Positions 6,863 through 41,934 are shown, counted from the first letter of the stretch. The stretch is DNA of 41,934 bases from a virus (IMGVR_UViG_2541047821_000007); one strand, 5' to 3'. The notes: generated by a model not told the origin, from the sequence alone. Program-made: numbers and translations.

Positions 6863-7462
6863 TCAGAACTTATAACCGACACCCACGATGAAACCGTCAG
6901 TGCGCCAGTCGCCACTGCCGGAGCCTTCATAAGCAATATCAATGGCCACGGATTCGGTCGGGTTAAACTGCACGCCAGCTCCCCACGCCAGAGACGTGTT
7001 GCTGTGGCGACCGTCATCACTTCCGGTCAGCACGTCGTGCGTTTTCCCCTTGTTGTCAGTTACGCGGAGATAATCCCCGGAGAAAGTCGACACACGGCTG
7101 TAAGCCATACCCGCCATCGCATACGCGCTGAACCATTCATTCACGCGCACAGACGGCCCCACCATCACGCTGAACCAGCGGTTACGCACGGAATCTTCAT
7201 GCCAGCGGGTATCGCTGTAACGGGTAAGCTGGCGATTCTTGTCTCCTGCATAGCTGAATGACGTCACCAGCCCCAGTGTGTCCGTAAACTCATAACGGTA
7301 TTTCACGTTAATCCCGTTCAGATCATCACTGCCGGGAACGTTCGTCCGGGCATGAAGATACCCCGCGCTCAGCGTGGACTGATGTTCAGACGCCCATGCA
7401 GGCGCACCGGATACGGCCAGACAAATGGCTGCGGACAAAATGGCGGCATAAAGTTTACGCAT
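6863..7462 (-). CDS. lom: Lom/Ail/OmpX-family outer-membrane beta-barrel protein (moron)
   Basis: 199 aa; signal peptide [24 protein letters not shown]; C-terminal aromatic residue (…GVGYKF); between J and stf as in lambda. Confidence 0.85.
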
Positions 7463-35146: not shown

Positions 35147-35361
35147 AGCCTGCTTCTCCTTGCCTTTCGGCTCGTAAGAGGCTAACCTACATGTGTCTAG
35201 CATGAAATTGGCCTCAGATTAATGTTAAGCGTCTTGCAGGACGCGTAATGTTAACTGGGGCTTTTCTCTATCTGCCTTTGGTGTTCATGCCCGAGGCAGA
35301 TAGCCTCAAGCACCCGCAGCCATTCTACTTAACTACCGTTACCTCGCCAATATGAAATCAG

Positions 35362-35565
35362 TCAGAAAGGCGATCCATAAGAACAATAGCAAGACAATAA
35401 ATCGCCATTACAGCCGTAATAGCCAGCGCACATTTGAGAACCAGCACCACAACCTCCTGTATTGGACGTAGACCAGTCCTGATGAATATGAGGCTGTCTC
35501 GTCAGTGATTCAATACAACTATTGGGTATAGTTTCTCTGATTTTTTCTGTGGAAATGGGGCACAA
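35362..35565 (-). CDS. hypothetical Cys/Gly-rich 67-aa ORF
   Basis: Track ORF only; 7 Cys and Gly-rich tail; no clear RBS. Confidence 0.2.
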   Translation of the reverse strand: MCPISTEKIRETIPNSCIESLTRQPHIHQDWSTSNTGGCGAGSQMCAGYYGCNGDLLSCYCSYGSPF

Positions 35566-35879
35566 CCACTAGTCACCACCAGCACTTCTTTTAATACGCA
35601 AAGTCCGACACAAGCTAACCTTCTAGTCCGCTTTGAGCGAAAAACAGCCATAATTTAGTGCCACGTATATAATGATAGAGCTATTCAAGCTAGCAATTCA
35701 CATGTAAAAATTCAGAGGGTAGAAGCACATAGTTATAAATGTTGGCTCCATCGACAAATTGCGGTCTCAAGTACATTTATTAATGTTGCCCCCGCATTAA
35801 CAAATCATCAAGGTGACGACATGGGGTGATGCTGCCAACTTACTGATTTAGTGTATGATGGTGTTTTTGAGGTGCTCCA

Positions 35880-36155
35880 GTGGCTTCTGTTTCTATCAGC
35901 TGTCCCTCCTGTTCAGCTACTGACGGGGTGGTGCGTAACGGCAAAAGCACCGCCGGACATCAGCGCTATCTCTGCTCTCACTGCCGTAAAACATGGCAAC
36001 TGCAGTTCACTTACACCGCTTCTCAACCCGGTACGCACCAGAAAATCATTGATATGGCCATGAATGGCGTTGGATGCCGGGCAACCGCCCGCATTATGGG
36101 CGTTGGCCTCAACACGATTTTCCGCCATTTAAAAAACTCAGGCCGCAGTCGGTAA
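35880..36155 (+). CDS. insA: IS1 InsA
   Basis: 91 aa, [46 protein letters not shown]... Confidence 0.95.
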
Positions 36156-36577
36156 CCTCGCGCATACAGCCGGGCAGTGACGTCATCGTCTGCGCGGAAA
36201 TGGACGAACAGTGGGGATACGTCGGGGCTAAATCGCGCCAGCGCTGGCTGTTTTACGCGTATGACAGGCTCCGGAAGACGGTTGTTGCGCACGTATTCGG
36301 TGAACGCACTATGGCGACGCTGGGGCGTCTTATGAGCCTGCTGTCACCCTTTGACGTGGTGATATGGATGACGGATGGCTGGCCGCTGTATGAATCCCGC
36401 CTGAAGGGAAAGCTGCACGTAATCAGCAAGCGATATACGCAGCGAATTGAGCGGCATAACCTGAATCTGAGGCAGCACCTGGCACGGCTGGGACGGAAGT
36501 CGCTGTCGTTCTCAAAATCGGTGGAGCTGCATGACAAAGTCATCGGGCATTATCTGAACATAAAACACTATCAATAA
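36074..36577 (+). CDS. insB: IS1 InsB (made as InsAB' by -1 frameshift at the A6C motif)
   Basis: 167-aa ORF overlapping insA; slippery TTAAAAAACTC at ~36124-36135. Confidence 0.9.
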
Positions 36578-36596
36578 GTTGGAGTCATTACCCGAC

Positions 36597-38384
36597 ATGG
36601 ACGATATTAATATCAGCCTCGACGAACTTAACACTATTGATTTATCCCCCTTAATCCAGAGTAAGCTGCCAGTTACCTGCTTTGATATCACAAAGTATCT
36701 TTCTAGCCTAGGTGATGGAAGAGCGGAGATAAGACTGCTAACCCATATTTGCGGTTTTCACTTTCGTCCCGAAAATCCACAGGTACCATTTGGTCCGTGC
36801 TTTCAAAGCAGCCAAGGTAGATCTGCAATTCCGGATGACATTAACGGGTTGTCGCTGGAGGTACTTTCTCAATTTTGCCCGACGATAGAGCTACCCGAAC
36901 TTCAAGCTCGTATTGCTGATACACTTTGGGTTCGTAAAATTGGTGGAATCCGTTTTCCTTTGCTGGCAGTCCGTGCTTATTATGCGTCCAGTATAGCTAT
37001 TATGACATCGCAAGGGACGTGGGTTAGTGCTTTAGAACGCCTAGAGCGTGCGCTTAGGCTGTGTTGTTTTTTTCGAAAGAATACTGATTTCAGGGATGAA
37101 TTTGATCAGCTTTCGGCACATCTACTAGCAGAGTATGAACGTACCAGAGAACAAGGCGATTCACCTTATCCGCTGCGACTCCTGCAACTCGATATCGACT
37201 GTAAAGTGAGTGAGCCATCTTTTATTGCCCAGGAACTCCTGTTTCTGACAAAAAACTATCTGGCTCAAAAATTATTTTCATTTGCCGTCGATGCCTGTAA
37301 AACCGCAATCACGATTGCGAATAGGTGCTGTGACAGAGATACACAGTTTGAATTCTGGCGGCTTCTTGCCGATACACATCTGGAAGAGTCAAAATTCCAA
37401 GATGGCGGTATGATTTCGGCAGCCTGCATGCAGAATGCTATTGAAGCACTGGCTAATATTCCAGGAACCCGAATAGAACGTCTTGCGCTGTATGAAGAAA
37501 TGCGTGATTACCAAATCGAATCCCGTCACCAGATGTCTATCCTTCAGTCTCCCCCTCAAGATATTAGTGAGATTGTCCATCAAGCCAAGAGTCGGGTAGT
37601 CGGAAGAGATATGTTTGATATGGTTTTCAGACTTGCGATGCTGGTCTGTCGGCCAACCAGCATTGAGAGACTTAAGGCTCAAGCAATAGAACAAAAGGCC
37701 AACAGCATAGCTTGGATGTTTGGATCAACACATATTGATCATGAGGGAATGACACTTGCTCGCATACCCGCAGGATTGGGGATTGATGATGCAAATGGGG
37801 CAGTTATTTGGCCCATAATGATGACGAGAATGCGTATCGACCATGAGTTGGCAGTAGCTGGGCAAATTATTCCTGCTACAGATGAGATCACAATGAAATA
37901 TCCAATCTCGGAGGCGTTTTTTCGCGATATGTTCATCAATCATCCCTTCATCCCGTTTGGGCATGAAGAGTTTTTCATCAAGGGTATGGTTTGCGGTTTC
38001 AATGGAGATTTTATGACGGCATGCCACGTGTTGATTCCCCAGATCGAAAATAGTCTGAGATATGTGGCTAAAATTAAAGGTGAGGAACCATCGCAGCTTC
38101 ACGGGGACGGTTCGCAAGAGCGAAATGGACTCAAGGGATTACTAGATAATCCACTGATTATTGAAGCTTTCGGCGTAGACATAATTGGCAATCTTCAGGC
38201 CTTACTGGTAGATAAAATCTATGGTGATTTACGAAATCAACTAGCTCACGGATATGTGCCTGCCGGTTACTACAATCAACCTCCCTGCATTTTTGCATGG
38301 TGGCTTGTATTGCACATTCTAATGAACCCTACGGCGAGATACTGGCAAGCCACTTATGGCCAAGAGAGTGAGGCTCAGACTTAA
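36597..38384 (+). CDS. 595-aa protein of unknown function with C-terminal HEPN-like R-x4-H motif; candidate abortive-infection/defence protein
   Basis: ATG 36597 lies inside the IS1 target duplication (track start is a TTG inside IS1); LRNQLAHG at 38232-38249; mostly helical composition, no Walker A; opposite strand to the early operon. Confidence 0.6.
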   Translation: MDDINISLDELNTIDLSPLIQSKLPVTCFDITKYLSSLGDGRAEIRLLTHICGFHFRPENPQVPFGPCFQSSQGRSAIPDDINGLSLEVLSQFCPTIELPELQARIADTLWVRKIGGIRFPLLAVRAYYASSIAIMTSQGTWVSALERLERALRLCCFFRKNTDFRDEFDQLSAHLLAEYERTREQGDSPYPLRLLQLDIDCKVSEPSFIAQELLFLTKNYLAQKLFSFAVDACKTAITIANRCCDRDTQFEFWRLLADTHLEESKFQDGGMISAACMQNAIEALANIPGTRIERLALYEEMRDYQIESRHQMSILQSPPQDISEIVHQAKSRVVGRDMFDMVFRLAMLVCRPTSIERLKAQAIEQKANSIAWMFGSTHIDHEGMTLARIPAGLGIDDANGAVIWPIMMTRMRIDHELAVAGQIIPATDEITMKYPISEAFFRDMFINHPFIPFGHEEFFIKGMVCGFNGDFMTACHVLIPQIENSLRYVAKIKGEEPSQLHGDGSQERNGLKGLLDNPLIIEAFGVDIIGNLQALLVDKIYGDLRNQLAHGYVPAGYYNQPPCIFAWWLVLHILMNPTARYWQATYGQESEAQT

Positions 38385-38602
38385 AGTGAATAAGTTTACG
38401 AAGTTGGCACTTCCGGATGCATGTCCATATGAGTTGAGGCGATTTGGTTAATAAGGTTGAGTGCTGCTGAAATTATTCGATGTCCGCTTTTGGCACAAAG
38501 CGGACAACCACGCCAGATCTACCCTGTGCCATGAAAAATGAGAATGTCAATTCACTCCTGAACTAATGCTTTTTAATCTAGTAACGTCTAAAATACCTAA
38601 CA

Positions 38603-39004
38603 TTATCCCTGATAAAATGCCAGTATGCGCTGCATAACTTCACTCATCCGGCACTCGCGACAGATTATGTTTAGGCGACTGTCGTAGCGACGTATTTCTC
38701 CATCAGGTAACGACCAGATAAGGTCCGGATCAACCACAGCTGTTTTCTTCACCTTTGCCCTCGAGAGTTTTTTGCGGGCGTTTTGCCAGTCCTTACGCGC
38801 CTGTTCAGACGGGAATAACCCGTAGCCGGAGTTGTATACATCGCCACTGGCTACCAGCTCTCTGGCAAGAACGCTCATCAGATATCTAGTCGCACCTGTT
38901 TTAGCTTCCAGTTGCCGTAACGTCTCACGACCGCTCTGGCGCACGAGTTCCACCACCTGCCCTTTAATTTTTTCCCGCTCTTCTTGTGTAAAAACTTTTG
39001 CCAC
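38603..39004 (-). CDS. hypothetical 133-aa protein downstream of the replication initiator
   Basis: Track ORF; basic central region; convergent with the 595-aa gene. Confidence 0.45.
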   Translation of the reverse strand: MAKVFTQEEREKIKGQVVELVRQSGRETLRQLEAKTGATRYLMSVLARELVASGDVYNSGYGLFPSEQARKDWQNARKKLSRAKVKKTAVVDPDLIWSLPDGEIRRYDSRLNIICRECRMSEVMQRILAFYQG

Positions 39005-39044
39005 AAGTCCCCCTTAAAATTACCTCATGACCTGAAATCAAAAC

Positions 39045-40010
39045 TTATCCTCTGAAACCAGGCGGAATTTCTGTATCCGGTTCAGAAATATGATTAACAC
39101 AACGCTGTACAGGTGAACGCCCCAGGCGGATGACCAGTTCGTCCCATTTTTCGCGGAGCTTTGACGGGCTCATGATGTTTTTTACCCAGAATGGATCCCG
39201 CTGTACCCGACCAAACATTTCACAAATTTGTCTGTGGCTTCTGCCATCCAGCATCCGCATTGTGCGCACATCATTGGCCCAGACAGTCCAGTTAGGCTCT
39301 TTTGGTCGCATGATCTCGCCATCATCACTGGCGGCCTGTTCGTAGAGACCCACGATCCGCCCCCATATCCACTGCGCACACGCCAGATCCTCCTGGCTAC
39401 CCCACTGGCGTTTTTTCGCACTAAACACAACTGCGCCAGGGTGCCGGATTAAAAAATCCTGTTCAGCCGTCTGCGGGTCCGGTTGCGAAGCTTCCGGACG
39501 AAAAGTGTTTTTATTCTCTGTAGTAATCTCTGTTGTATTCTCTGTAGGATCATCGGGCCATTTTGACCCGATGACATTGGGTCGTTTTGAACCAATGGAG
39601 CGTTTCATTTTGACCTCTTCCATCGTGTCATTTTGACCTGATGGAGCGGCGCATTTTGAACCGATGGATTCGCTCAATTTGCCATCATCTAAAAGCTCGC
39701 TTCCATAGTTAATCGTGTAGAAATTGGTCATATCGCGCTTTGATTTATTGAGCTTTTCACAACGCAAAAGCCCCAGCGTTTTCAGACTTGCAAACGCGCG
39801 CTTTAACGTTGACTCTGACCAGAATGGGAACTGTTCCAGCCATTGTTCCGTTGTGTTGTAAATCCAGCGAACACCATCACATTCCATGCCGGAATTGGTA
39901 TCTCTCAACCAGTAATGCAACTGCTGCAACACAATGGCTTCATTTAAGCCAATCTTCATCGCAAGCTGTGTGTTTATAACCAGTGGGCGTTCAGCAAAAA
40001 GAAGGCTCAT
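39045..40010 (-). CDS. replication initiator, phage O/DnaD-like, with internal origin iterons
   Basis: N-terminus MSLLFAERPLVINTQLAMKIGLNEAIVLQQLHYW typical of phage replication proteins; iterons inside the coding region; track start 40064 is TTG, ATG at 40010. Confidence 0.7.
   Translation of the reverse strand: MSLLFAERPLVINTQLAMKIGLNEAIVLQQLHYWLRDTNSGMECDGVRWIYNTTEQWLEQFPFWSESTLKRAFASLKTLGLLRCEKLNKSKRDMTNFYTINYGSELLDDGKLSESIGSKCAAPSGQNDTMEEVKMKRSIGSKRPNVIGSKWPDDPTENTTEITTENKNTFRPEASQPDPQTAEQDFLIRHPGAVVFSAKKRQWGSQEDLACAQWIWGRIVGLYEQAASDDGEIMRPKEPNWTVWANDVRTMRMLDGRSHRQICEMFGRVQRDPFWVKNIMSPSKLREKWDELVIRLGRSPVQRCVNHISEPDTEIPPGFRG
39559..39672. repeat. five iterons, consensus CATTTTGA(A/C)C(C/T)GATGG, 22-24 bp period (candidate ori)
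   Basis: Copies at 39560, 39584, 39608, 39630, 39653; encode repeated (S)IGSK in the protein; three TCTCTGT(A/T)G repeats at ~39514-39546. Confidence 0.7.
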
Positions 40011-40512
40011 AATTCCATCCAGCTTTTTGTTGGTATTGCTGTCGATACGCAAGTTTGAAAGCAATTGCTTTTTCTATAAGTTCGTCAGTTTCACGATCCA
40101 CTACGGCAGGATCAGCAAAAAGCAGTCCGGACTCCACCACATCGCCATATTCTTTGTTTAACCCGGCGATCATGTACGTGATGCTTTTTCCGTCACTAAT
40201 TTCACGATACAACCTGAAATCATTAATCCGGATAGCCTCCATAATTGCAGGCACTAGCGCCGTGAACTTTTCACGCTTATCCCTGGTGTCGATAGCCTTC
40301 CAGCGTTCGAATATCTTCACTCGATTAACGCCAAGCGCTCGCTGATCAACCGCGCCACCTTCATCTGTGACACGCTGAACATCGATGTTCGGGCGCTCTT
40401 TCAAAGCCCAGAATGCTTCAGTGATTAATATCGTCGCCTGCTCCTGTGTCATTCCTGGTCGACATATCCAGGCATCCAGAGCCTCACGAGCCTGTTCAGG
40501 AGTGATTTTCAT
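39991..40512 (-). CDS. YdaT-like early protein
   Basis: 173 aa; KIFERW...ALVPAI pattern resembles Rac YdaT; follows the Cro-like gene. Confidence 0.5.
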   Translation of the reverse strand: MKITPEQAREALDAWICRPGMTQEQATILITEAFWALKERPNIDVQRVTDEGGAVDQRALGVNRVKIFERWKAIDTRDKREKFTALVPAIMEAIRINDFRLYREISDGKSITYMIAGLNKEYGDVVESGLLFADPAVVDRETDELIEKAIAFKLAYRQQYQQKAGWNYEPSFC

Positions 40513-40723
40513 TGTTCAACCGCCCCGCCCGCTTCGTCTTACGATATTCGTCATAAACCTTGGGATCATACAGAAGCTCGCCGCCAGATGCCTCCTGTAG
40601 ACGCATCGCGCGACCTTCAGGAACCAGCTCTTGCCATTGAGAAACAGCAGATGGGTCAACGCCAGCAGCTTTCGCTACTTTGGCTTTCGTACCGTAAAAA
40701 TTAATTACGTCTGATTTAAACAT
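40496..40723 (-). CDS. dicC: DicC/YdaS-like Cro-type regulator
   Basis: ~75 aa from ATG 40723 (GGAGGTG SD); divergent from the repressor. Confidence 0.7.
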   Translation of the reverse strand: MFKSDVINFYGTKAKVAKAAGVDPSAVSQWQELVPEGRAMRLQEASGGELLYDPKVYDEYRKTKRAGRLNNENHS

Positions 40724-40735
40724 CGCACCTCCAGT

Positions 40736-40751
40736 ATTGAGTTTTCTCAAT
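40736..40751. promoter_or_regulatory. operator-like inverted repeat in the dicC-dicA intergenic region
   Basis: ATTGAG-TTTT-CTCAAT; the 11-mer AGTTTTCTCA(T) recurs at 41273-41285 and inverted at 41309-41319. Confidence 0.5.
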
Positions 40752-40800
40752 GCTAATCACTCAAGGAATCTCAAGTCAAGGGTTATTAAGATATCTAAAT

Positions 40801-41208
40801 ATGAACGAGAAAACTTTAGGTCAACGCATTAGAGAAAGACGTAAGCAGGTAGGTTTAAGTCAAAACGGTTTAAGCAAAGCTGCTGGCGTATCTGGCTCAT
40901 CAATTTCATTATGGGAAAGTGACCATACAGCCCCGCGCGGGCAAAATTTGCATCGCCTCGCCGAGGTATTGCAATGTTCACCAACCTGGATACTGTTTGG
41001 CGACGAGGACAAAACACCAGCTCCCCCTGTTTCACTCGATAGTGCCTTAGACTTATCGGAAGATGAGTTAGAGATGCTGCGTTTGTATCGCGCACTTCCT
41101 AAATCAGAGCAACAAGCACAACTCAGCGAACTCCGCGCCCGCGTTGAGAATTTTAATCGCCTGTTCACCGAGCTATTAGAGGCTCGCAAACGCAACAAGC
41201 ATCAATAA
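40801..41208 (+). CDS. dicA: DicA-like XRE-family repressor
   Basis: 135 aa from ATG 40801; HTH LSQNGLSKAAGVSGSSISLWE; VLQCSPTWILFGDEDK motif. Confidence 0.8.
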   Translation: MNEKTLGQRIRERRKQVGLSQNGLSKAAGVSGSSISLWESDHTAPRGQNLHRLAEVLQCSPTWILFGDEDKTPAPPVSLDSALDLSEDELEMLRLYRALPKSEQQAQLSELRARVENFNRLFTELLEARKRNKHQ

Positions 41209-41272
41209 TCATCCCTTCACAAAATTTTAAAGCCTTACATTTCAATGTATTGGCTTTATCTTGCGCCAATAC

Positions 41273-41324
41273 TTGAGTTTTCTCATCAAAAAGCCTTGAC
41301 GAAAAATAATGAGAAAACTAAATT
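41273..41324 (+). promoter_or_regulatory. candidate promoter with flanking operator half-sites for the ydfA-ydfB-ydfC operon
   Basis: TTGAGTTTTCTCA (41273-41285), -35 TTGACG (41296-41301), 17-nt spacer holding inverted copy ATGAGAAAACT (41309-41319), -10 TAAATT (41319-41324). Confidence 0.5.
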
Positions 41325-41400
41325 ACCTCCATCAACACACCGCACGGTGTTCTCAGCAAACAGTTCCGCTACCCCGGCGTTAAGGGGAAATGAGGTCAGC

Positions 41401-41556
41401 ATGGATACTATCGATCTTGGCAACAACGAATCTCTGGTGTACGGCGTGTTTCCAAACCAGGACGGCACGTTCACCGCAATGACGTATACCAAAAGCAAAA
41501 CGTTTAAAACCGAAAATGGTGCCCGTCGCTGGCTGGAAAGAAACTCAGGTGAGTGA
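41401..41556 (+). CDS. ydfA: YdfA-like small protein (51 aa)
   Basis: ATG 41401 with GAGGT SD. Confidence 0.6.
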   Translation: MDTIDLGNNESLVYGVFPNQDGTFTAMTYTKSKTFKTENGARRWLERNSGE

Positions 41557-41557
41557 T

Positions 41558-41686
41558 ATGGATTTCGACACAATCATGAAAAAGGCTTACGAAGAATACT
41601 TCGAAGGCCTTACCGAAGGCGAAGAAGCTCTCAGCTTCAGTGAGTTTAAACAGGCGCTTTCCAGCTCGGCAAAATCTAACGGCTGA
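41558..41686 (+). CDS. ydfB: YdfB-like small protein (42 aa)
   Basis: ATG 1 nt after the ydfA stop; not in track (<60 aa). Confidence 0.5.
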   Translation: MDFDTIMKKAYEEYFEGLTEGEEALSFSEFKQALSSSAKSNG

Positions 41687-41715
41687 TAAGCGAAGCAGCA
41701 CCGCGAGGAATCAGT

Positions 41716-41934
41716 ATGCAGAAACGAGAACCCGTCATCATCGCGCCAGACTATACCGATGATGAACTTTATGAGTGGATGCGCCAGAAAATTAATGCAG
41801 CGCAGGATCTGAAATGGGCCAATGAAGCCAGGGCTAAGCAGGCTGAAAATCTGTCCGCTCTGGAGCAGGATATCACCAGGCTGGAAAAAGCAGCGGCATT
41901 AAGCATTGCCAGAATGATTACATACCAGCGTTAA
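41716..41934 (+). CDS. ydfC: YdfC-like protein (72 aa)
   Basis: Complete ORF ending at the window edge with TAA; coiled-coil C-terminal half. Confidence 0.55.
   Translation: MQKREPVIIAPDYTDDELYEWMRQKINAAQDLKWANEARAKQAENLSALEQDITRLEKAAALSIARMITYQR

Follow-up and report, generated by a model that had tools for sequence, protein, structure and literature searches.

RESULTS

A repeat-bearing initiator gene

The stretch of viral DNA designated IMGVR_UViG_2541047821_000007, which is 41,934 nucleotides (nt) long and is referred to here in its entirety as the window, carries on its minus strand a gene for a putative replication initiator, the middle of which contains two arrays of short direct repeats: six 23-bp iteron units (39551-39689) and three 12-mers (39512-39547). 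We consider it highly probable that the segment 39512-39689 is the replication origin of this phage and that it is bound by the phage's own initiator. It is very probably a theta-type origin of a Qin-like lambdoid prophage, embedded in the linker-coding part of the initiator gene.

According to our open reading frame (ORF) list and the coordinates of the NCBI annotation pipeline PGAP, the initiator gene (39045-40010, minus strand) encodes 321 amino acids when read from the ATG at 40010, although the ORF as delimited mechanically begins farther upstream, with a TTG at 40064. PGAP names the product "hypothetical protein" (WP_000054487.1), and it matches PHROG 391, "replication initiation O-like," with an E value of 3.5e-92, residues 35-339 aligning with profile positions 11-298 of 298. 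Three parts can be distinguished, all on the minus strand: an N-terminal domain (residues 1-107; 39690-40010), which from AlphaFold topology and Foldseek is predicted to be winged-helix-like and is the presumed reader of the iterons; an interdomain linker (residues 108-182; 39465-39689), predicted to be disordered from the predicted local distance difference test (pLDDT) and the translation, which holds both the iterons and the 12-mers; and a C-terminal helical domain (39120-39464), delimited by tblastn, BLASTP and hhalign and modeled with a pLDDT of about 80.

Anatomy of the two arrays

An earlier note on this DNA had described five direct repeats at this place, accompanied by three TCTCTGTWG repeats. 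The direct repeats are real, lie where they were reported and far exceed chance, but the units number six, not five. A repeat finder recovered the array with a 23-bp period at 39551-39689 and a 12-bp array at 39512-39547, and Tandem Repeats Finder (TRF) agreed. The 15-mer CATTTTGAMCYGATG on which the earlier count was based occurs exactly at 39559, 39629 and 39652, with two- and three-mismatch copies at 39583 and 39606; all five copies are on the plus strand, spaced 23 to 24 bp apart within 108 bp. Four further matches to it in the 41.9-kb window (two or three mismatches) are scattered, where about five were expected by chance, and no second cluster of the iteron motif was found elsewhere in the window. 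The three TCTCTGTWG repeats, all at 39515-39547 with 12-bp spacing, are the only occurrences in the whole window (0.47 expected). They had been placed upstream of the iterons, which is true on the plus strand; along the gene, which is on the minus strand, they come after the iterons, as does the AT-rich region of lambda. The repeated (S)IGSK peptide is encoded as described, in the order SIGSK, PSGQN, SIGSK, VIGSK and then TENTTEITTENK.

Read in the sense of the gene, the units occupy nt 322-460 of its 966 nt, in the order u1 (39667-39689; GATGATGGCAAATTGAGCGAATC), which is degenerate; u2 (39644-39666; CATCGGTTCAAAATGCGCCGCTC); u3 (39621-39643; CATCAGGTCAAAATGACACGATG), a clear inverted repeat; u4 (39598-39620; GAAGAGGTCAAAATGAAACGCTC), which has degenerate arms; u5 (39575-39597; CATTGGTTCAAAACGACCCAATG), again a clear inverted repeat; and u6 (39551-39573; CATCGGGTCAAAATGGCCCGATG), a clear inverted repeat and the best palindrome of the array. 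Each unit has internal dyad symmetry around TCAAAAYG, and the inverted arms are clear in four of the six. The core is of the GGNCAAWWTGNCC type (here GGTCAAAATGNC) and is framed by CATCNG...CGATG arms.

The 12-mers, in the sense order CTACAGAGAATA, CAACAGAGATTA, CTACAGAGAATA, are a candidate DNA-unwinding element. The segment 39508-39547 is the least stable 40-bp duplex of the region 38600-40760, with a free energy of -44.6 kcal/mol against a mean of -54.9 (standard deviation, 3.6), and the 15 windows of this size that start at 39498-39512 rank 1 to 15 among the 926 of the gene.

Constraint on the DNA of the repeats

Mean pairwise identity by codon position was calculated for the window and six relatives from the Enterobacterales in which the units are placed identically. 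At codon positions 1, 2 and 3, respectively, it was 0.90, 0.95 and 0.60 in the N-terminal domain, 0.84, 0.90 and 0.82 in the iteron array, and 1.00, 0.79 and 0.96 in the 12-mers. Third positions, which are free under protein selection, are not free in the repeats, and for this reason the constraint on the repeat region is seen to act on the DNA rather than on the peptide. In several relatives (L034, L047, L050-52, L055, L058, L068 and L070, numbered as in the locus survey described below), some copies of CA(G/A)AGA are 11 bp apart, so that the same word is read in two or three frames, as in the DRDYPETTQRK of L052. Judged by this comparison, the conserved item is the DNA word and not the TENT or TEIT peptide that it encodes.

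The same design in a large family

We surveyed 80 loci from one-genome-per-species contigs and counted features over 72 distinct family ORFs. The relatives that share the layout range from Enterobacterales to Bacillota: across the 80 loci, an array with a 22- to 24-bp period and a lineage-specific core lies at the same position in the gene and is followed by near-universal CAGAGAnTAC repeats with a period of 11 to 12 nt. The core is GGTCAAAATGACC in Escherichia and Citrobacter, GGGCAAATTGCAC in Pantoea and Pseudomonas, GGATCAAAATGATCC in Limosilactobacillus and GATCAATCTGCGCAC in Photobacterium; GGACAATCTGTCC is a further core, and the general form is the GGNCAAWWTGNCC palindrome. With stringent settings, TRF reported a 21- to 25-bp tandem array starting at gene nt 270-560 in 36 of the 72 ORFs, compared with four arrays in 384 kb of flanking DNA. 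At least two copies of CA(G/A)AGA at 11- to 12-nt spacing were present within nt 280-640 in 52 of the 72 ORFs and at least three copies in 39, compared with four and one occurrences, respectively, in 768 kb of flanks (both strands). The four CA(G/A)AGA runs and four 21- to 25-bp arrays outside initiator genes, in the flanks of L003-L082, could be second origins or could be due to chance.

The half-sites change together. Among 232 phased sites, 61% have complementary bases beside the core in their left and right halves, compared with 32 ± 3% when right halves were shuffled (1000 shuffles; maximum, 41%), and all four complementary types are present (T/A, 55; G/C, 63; A/T, 20; C/G, 4). Such complementarity is the mark of a binder with two-fold symmetry.

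In a position next to parA/copG, the same design is carried by two small plasmids, one of 15 kb from Paracaedibacter and one of 16.4 kb from Bacillus weihaiensis; no other Rep is annotated on either in gene tables that are incomplete. In phage Kati (L167, 1232-2173), the C-terminal domain and the DnaT-like tail described below are kept, the N-terminal domain is unrelated and CAGAGA repeats are absent; the in-gene iterons are instead a 15-bp unit, TCTGACCCGTCAAAA, in 4.3 copies encoding SDPSKSDASK repeats. By this comparison, N-terminal domain, iterons and CAGAGA repeats travel as one cassette.

Copy number varies within both arrays. P0020, a 290-aa variant (L166, 1380-2252), arose by a clean crossover between u2 and u6 at a shared ATCGG, with the loss of 93 bp in frame. 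Lambda's classical ori-minus deletions are the same kind of event. Natural alleles of this type (P0020, and also P0018-P0023) lack u2 to u5, retain one good and one degenerate unit, and are candidate origin-defective prophages. One or more extra 12-mers, seen as extra TENT, are found in L006 (gene nt 466-511), P0100 and L116, the number being one in L006 and P0100.

Among open-access papers, we found no mention of the iteron or CAGAGA motifs of this family; literal matches to the motifs were unrelated primers and papers.

A residue that tracks the iteron base

Among the N-domain columns, the one aligned to Ser67 (codon 39810-39812, minus strand; codon checked) carries 1.41 of 1.55 bits of mutual information with iteron type. 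Ser67 stands at the start of the predicted recognition helix (residues 66-78), adjoins the invariant T68 and R71, and is a candidate for the residue that sets specificity for the base lying 5' of CAA in every half-site. The residue is Ser in 16 of 20 cases in which the iteron base is T, Asp in 12 of 12 in which it is G, Lys or Arg in 6 of 6 in which it is A, and His in the single case in which it is C. Lys occurs twice in the T class, but these apparent exceptions go with hybrid sites, GGT...TGTCC, of which the right half is A-type.

Four pairs of relatives differ in both the residue and the base. In Pantoea L020/L025, Lys (with an A-type right half-site) is replaced by Asp (G), the rest of the N-terminal domain being 90% identical; the corresponding changes are Ser (T) to Arg (A) in Staphylococcus L047/L074 (74% identical), Ala (T) to His (C) in Lactobacillaceae L055/L079 (72%) and Asp (G) to Arg (A) in Moraxellaceae L048/L082 (60%). 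Comparison of these sequences thus supports the view that the N-terminal domain reads the iterons.

An unrelated N-terminal domain on a lambda-type C-terminal domain

The earlier note had called the gene O-like, which is apt for half of it: the C-terminal half is homologous to O of lambda and 434, and for the N-terminal domain neither a Pfam match nor a similarity to lambda O was detected. Residues 188-333 match O of lambda, 434, 21 and 933W (tblastn, 36% identity; E, 6e-17), BLASTP of the initiator against 434 O gave 32% identity over 169 amino acids (E, 3e-27), and in an hhalign comparison of the profile of 41 diverse relatives with 434 O (a single sequence on the lambda side) the C-terminal domain alone aligned. 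Neither Pfam nor this hhalign comparison of the family with 434 O detected similarity of the N-terminal domain to that of lambda-type O (Pfam family Phage_rep_O). Pfam gave no match with the initiator and, across the 41 relatives, no family for the N-terminal domain, with weak DeoR/PadR hints only; a search of PDB sequences with the family profile yielded one low-complexity chance match, and NCBIfam matched only the DnaT-like tail.

The AlphaFold model has low overall confidence (mean pLDDT, 55). It shows an H-H-b-b-H-H-b-b topology at residues 11-101 (pLDDT, 55 to 70), disorder at residues 101-175, which include the repeat-encoded part (pLDDT, about 25), and a helical domain at residues 183-297 (pLDDT, about 80). 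The top Foldseek matches of the N-terminal domain in the PDB are all winged-helix DNA-binding domains, none of them significant (best E, 0.12), and the assignment that they suggest is best taken as a hint. They include the winged-helix initiator domains 4pql and 5kbj ("Rep-DNA complex"), which are RepA_N proteins.

The N-terminal domain is common to initiators of phages mEp460, Pseudomonas AF, Erwinia PEp14, Staphylococcus 42E and 96, Bacillus TP21-L and Lactobacillus mv4. Exhaustive search placed 10,269 representative clusters in the family at E values of ≤1e-3 and 4,523 at ≤1e-10; by this measure it is a very large, uncatalogued family for which Pfam has no model. Some members (proteins of 400 to 880 amino acids with two matched stretches) have a tandem double domain.

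A DnaT-like tail and the absence of a helicase loader gene

No gene for a P, DnaC-like or DnaB-like protein is present next to the initiator gene or annotated elsewhere in the early-right region of the window. The last 20 codons of the initiator gene (39048-39107, minus strand) encode QRCVNHISEPDTEIPPGFRG, a copy of the extreme C terminus of host DnaT as judged by residue comparison, hhalign and NCBIfam. Compared with residues 160-179 of Escherichia coli DnaT, this tail is identical at 14 of 20 positions and similar at 18 of 20, and both sequences end in IPPGFRG; the last 20 residues of the host protein are thus 70% identical to those of the initiator, and its remainder is unalignable. The NCBIfam DnaT model scored 16.2 bits against a cutoff of 201 and matched at positions 160-179 only. 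The possibility that the whole C-terminal domain is DnaT-like was ruled out, since hhalign of the initiator family against DnaT aligned the 21 tail columns alone.

Across the family, the tail tracks what follows the initiator gene. Tail-less initiators are followed by a lambda P homologue (L007), IstB/DnaC-like ATPases (L026, L037, L047, L055 and L068) or DnaB-like helicases (L048 and L072); where the initiator has the terminal sequence ...IPxGF(R/K)G, the genes that come next encode only small proteins of the DUF977 or PerC type. The next ORF encodes at least 200 amino acids after 1 of 23 tail-bearing initiators compared with 27 of 46 tail-less ones (Fisher P, 6e-6, a value that ignores shared ancestry). 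The one tail-bearing initiator with a large next ORF is that of L013 (4007-4759; 250 amino acids, starting VIHFHGGPITPD), and on inspection this product is unlike a helicase loader.

For DnaT itself, two papers define no role for residues 154-179 beyond a contribution to cooperative binding of single-stranded DNA, and how DnaT recruits DnaB/DnaC is stated to be unknown (PMC13377028, PMC4132743). A search of open-access papers for the PGFRG motif returned unrelated work only. We propose that, by means of the tail, the initiator might draw on host loading factors instead of a phage-encoded loader.

Prophage setting and comparison with K-12 Qin

Many E. coli chromosomes match the window at 100% identity, including the initiator gene, the six units and the 12-mers. 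In those chromosomes it is a prophage at the ydfJ locus, for which the annotation lists terminase, portal, capsid, tail, lysis and Q genes together with one IS200, and it looks like a complete relative of the cryptic Qin prophage of K-12. The IS200C-family transposase gene lies at about 6984-7442, between a tail-fiber gene and a lom-like gene.

On the minus strand, the gene order is Cro-like, YdaT/CII-like, initiator and DUF977, with a divergent gene for a DicA-like repressor. The YdaT/CII-like gene (39991-40512, minus strand; Pfam YdaT_toxin, PHROG 163 "CII-like") overlaps the start of the initiator gene by 20 nt (39991-40010), which suggests translational coupling. Directly downstream of the initiator gene, where lambda has P, is the DUF977 gene (38603-39004, minus strand; Pfam DUF977 E, 6e-27), which is "Ren-like" in PHROG 142. 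On the strand of the initiator gene, the sole sigma-70-like consensus match (40750-40779, minus strand) precedes the Cro-like gene. We presume it to be the equivalent of pR, transcribing cro, the cII/ydaT-like gene, the initiator gene and the origin. Because the only promoter match is at this place, transcription through the origin would start at a pR-like promoter, which is also the arrangement in lambda.

K-12 Qin retains dicA, dicC and the beginning of the gene for the YdaT-like protein (ydfX), and it lacks the DNA corresponding to 35161-40232, including the entire initiator gene. The order Cro, CII-like, initiator and DUF977 is found again in phage HannyBb, a deposited 45-kb genome of environmental origin, at 97% protein identity. 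The earlier suggestion that the replication module is intact here, unlike that of K-12 Qin, therefore holds as regards the K-12 deletion and the gene order shared with HannyBb, but a P-, DnaC- or DnaB-type gene is not part of the module. Within the early-right operon, the DUF977 gene and hokD are separated by a DUF4209 gene on the opposite strand (601 amino acids; 36579-38384, plus strand), which has the look of an accessory gene acquired by insertion; at this place K-12 has relBE, ydfV and flxA instead. Rfam gave no match in 36000-41934.

DISCUSSION

In this study, we have described two arrays of repeats, under constraint at the DNA level, inside the gene for a phage initiator, and we infer from them, and from the features that the wider family shares, how binding, melting, helicase loading and replication itself would proceed. 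Dimers of the N-terminal winged-helix-like domain would bind the six dyad-symmetric 23-bp iterons, and the helix that starts at Ser67 would read the base next to the CAA/TTG core. The spacing of about two helical turns would place the bound initiators roughly on one face of the DNA, giving a complex that resembles the O-some. Together with transcription from the pR-like promoter, this complex may then melt the three adjacent CAGAGAnTA 12-mers, at which the host helicase would be loaded. There being no phage P, DnaC-like or DnaB-like gene, helicase recruitment would have to make use of host factors, and the candidate recruiters are the lambda-O-type C-terminal domain and the DnaT-like tail.

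Some further steps can be proposed with less confidence. It is possible, although we regard it as doubtful, that CAGAGAnTAC, with its 11- to 12-nt period, is a sequence-specific element read by the conserved face of the N-terminal domain, perhaps as single-stranded DNA in the manner of DnaA or TrfA, and that, in thousands of initiators of phages and plasmids, from Proteobacteria to Bacillota, it marks the place at which the helicase is loaded. Linked to this tentative proposal is the idea that, in the Enterobacterales members that have no loader, the tail is a short motif by which the phages, like DnaT itself, make contact with the apparatus that loads the host helicase.

Three other explanations of the repeats have to be weighed. 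The units may be real initiator sites with a mainly regulatory task, such as autoregulation, a transcriptional roadblock, or the titration and exclusion of a superinfecting relative, the true origin being elsewhere. Iterons in other replicons also serve copy number control, replication itself is predicted here from the sequence alone, and PMC3349717 describes the inhibition of related phages by fragments of the lambda replication region. We nevertheless think this quite unlikely, since there is no second motif cluster in the 41.9-kb window, the adjacent phased repeats of low stability are needed by an origin and not by a regulatory site, their position and order match the mapped origin of lambda, and the same design is the sole candidate replicon on two small plasmids. 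Alternatively, the segment may be an origin by descent that is inactive in this prophage, a relic of the sort found in many cryptic prophages. In its favor are the cryptic state of Qin in K-12, the IS200 in the present prophage, the lack of an encoded helicase loader and the circulation of variants with only two units; however, many E. coli genomes carry the gene, the six units and the 12-mers intact and at 100% identity, the HannyBb protein is 97% identical, and the annotation gives intact genes for head, tail, lysis and Q, so that this explanation is very unlikely. Finally, that the repeats are a protein feature only, a low-complexity, slippage-prone linker (SIGSK, TENT) with no function as DNA, is scarcely credible even though the region encodes a predicted disordered linker and its copy number shifts by clean in-frame events (the 93-bp deletion and the extra 12-mer): we rejected it on codon position identity, third positions in the repeats being conserved like first and second positions yet free in the N-terminal domain, and on the frame-independent CAGAGAnTAC word, which is retained though the 11-bp spacing alters the reading frame, and in addition the half-sites are palindromic and change together, and a distant protein residue tracks a DNA base.

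Several points weigh against the view that 39512-39689 is an initiator-bound origin. The support for origin function is wholly computational. Two of the six units, u1 and u4, are degenerate, and the 12-mer stretch is only moderately AT-rich, at 30% G+C; the AT-rich region of lambda is richer in AT than 39508-39547. The model of the N-terminal domain is of low confidence (pLDDT, 55 to 70) and has no significant fold match. The covariation counts ignore shared ancestry, a concern that the four independent switch pairs lessen. The lambda scheme is not transferable as a whole, because there is no helicase loader gene, and the statement that the small plasmids have no other Rep is provisional given the incomplete gene tables of PLSDB.

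If the segment is the origin, as we believe, an origin has been located for a prophage that is widespread in E. coli and has an initiator still listed in RefSeq as "hypothetical protein," and the comparison shows what K-12 Qin has lost. The work defines a very large family of initiator N-terminal domains without a Pfam model and supplies a rule for finding these origins, namely, that within the gene an array of the GGNCAAWWTGNCC type with a 23-bp period should precede CAGAGAnTAC repeats. A candidate one-residue/one-base recognition code is provided as well, which is testable by swapping, and, in the DnaT-like tail of initiators that have no loader, an experimental handle on the recruitment of DnaB/DnaC by DnaT. 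The in-gene layout is classic, but the design recurs across a very large, uncatalogued family of initiators. The family-wide CAGAGAnTAC repeats, the one-residue rule and the DnaT-like tail, as they emerge from these computations, are the parts that a specialist might not expect.

Comparison with known origins

RepA_N origins are situated inside rep, and RepA_N plasmids, like the iteron plasmids with repeated 13-mers (RK2 with TrfA and F with RepE), share with the window the combination of iterons and phased short repeats in the melting region. RepA_N plasmids differ in that the fold matches are nonsignificant (best E, 0.12) and there is no Pfam RepA_N match. In iteron plasmids, according to PMC4081077, phased short repeats occur in the unwinding element and Rep proteins bind one strand there sequence-specifically; such one-strand binding may serve as a model for the conserved CAGAGAnTAC word. 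The replisome-organizer genes offer another parallel, in that, among the Bacillota, initiators with the present N-terminal domain have a gene for a DnaC/IstB-like loader or a DnaB-like helicase after them. In SPP1, the initiator G38P binds repeats in its own gene (oriL), and the same has been proposed for ORF20 of 80-alpha (PMC5499656). An own-gene origin is thus shared with G38P/oriL, a likeness drawn from the published description.

The closest likeness is to ori-lambda, for which an origin inside the initiator gene is textbook knowledge. The earlier note's view that origin-type iterons within the gene mirror lambda is borne out by the homology of the C-terminal half, the 434-like position in the gene, the TCAAAAYG dyads and the constraint on the DNA. 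In the annotated record of phage 434, four gpO sites are located at O-gene nt 349-433 with spacings of 20, 24 and 23 bp, and here the units are at nt 322-460; the lambda-type sites ATCCCTCAAAACGAGGGA and the window's CATCGGGTCAAAATGGCCCGATG are both dyads around TCAAAAYG; and BLASTP aligned lambda's AT-rich segment NTKDTNTKENRKDY with the 12-mer segment TENTTEITTENKNT. The origins of lambda, 434, 21 and the Stx phages share with the window a location halfway along the initiator gene, where the linker is encoded, a series of sites with dyad symmetry that are centered on TCAAAAYG and follow one another at about two helical turns, a low-stability stretch after the iterons in the direction of transcription, a homologous C-terminal domain, and the possibility of iteron loss by in-frame crossover. 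They differ in having four 18- to 19-bp sites where the window has six 23-bp units; moreover, the N-terminal domain of the window's initiator is not detectably related to theirs, its melting stretch consists of three ordered 12-mers, and it has no P gene but an initiator that bears a DnaT-like C-terminal tail. On these comparisons, the element would be classed as a lambdoid in-gene origin in which a non-lambda N-domain/iteron cassette has been placed on a lambda-type C-terminal domain.

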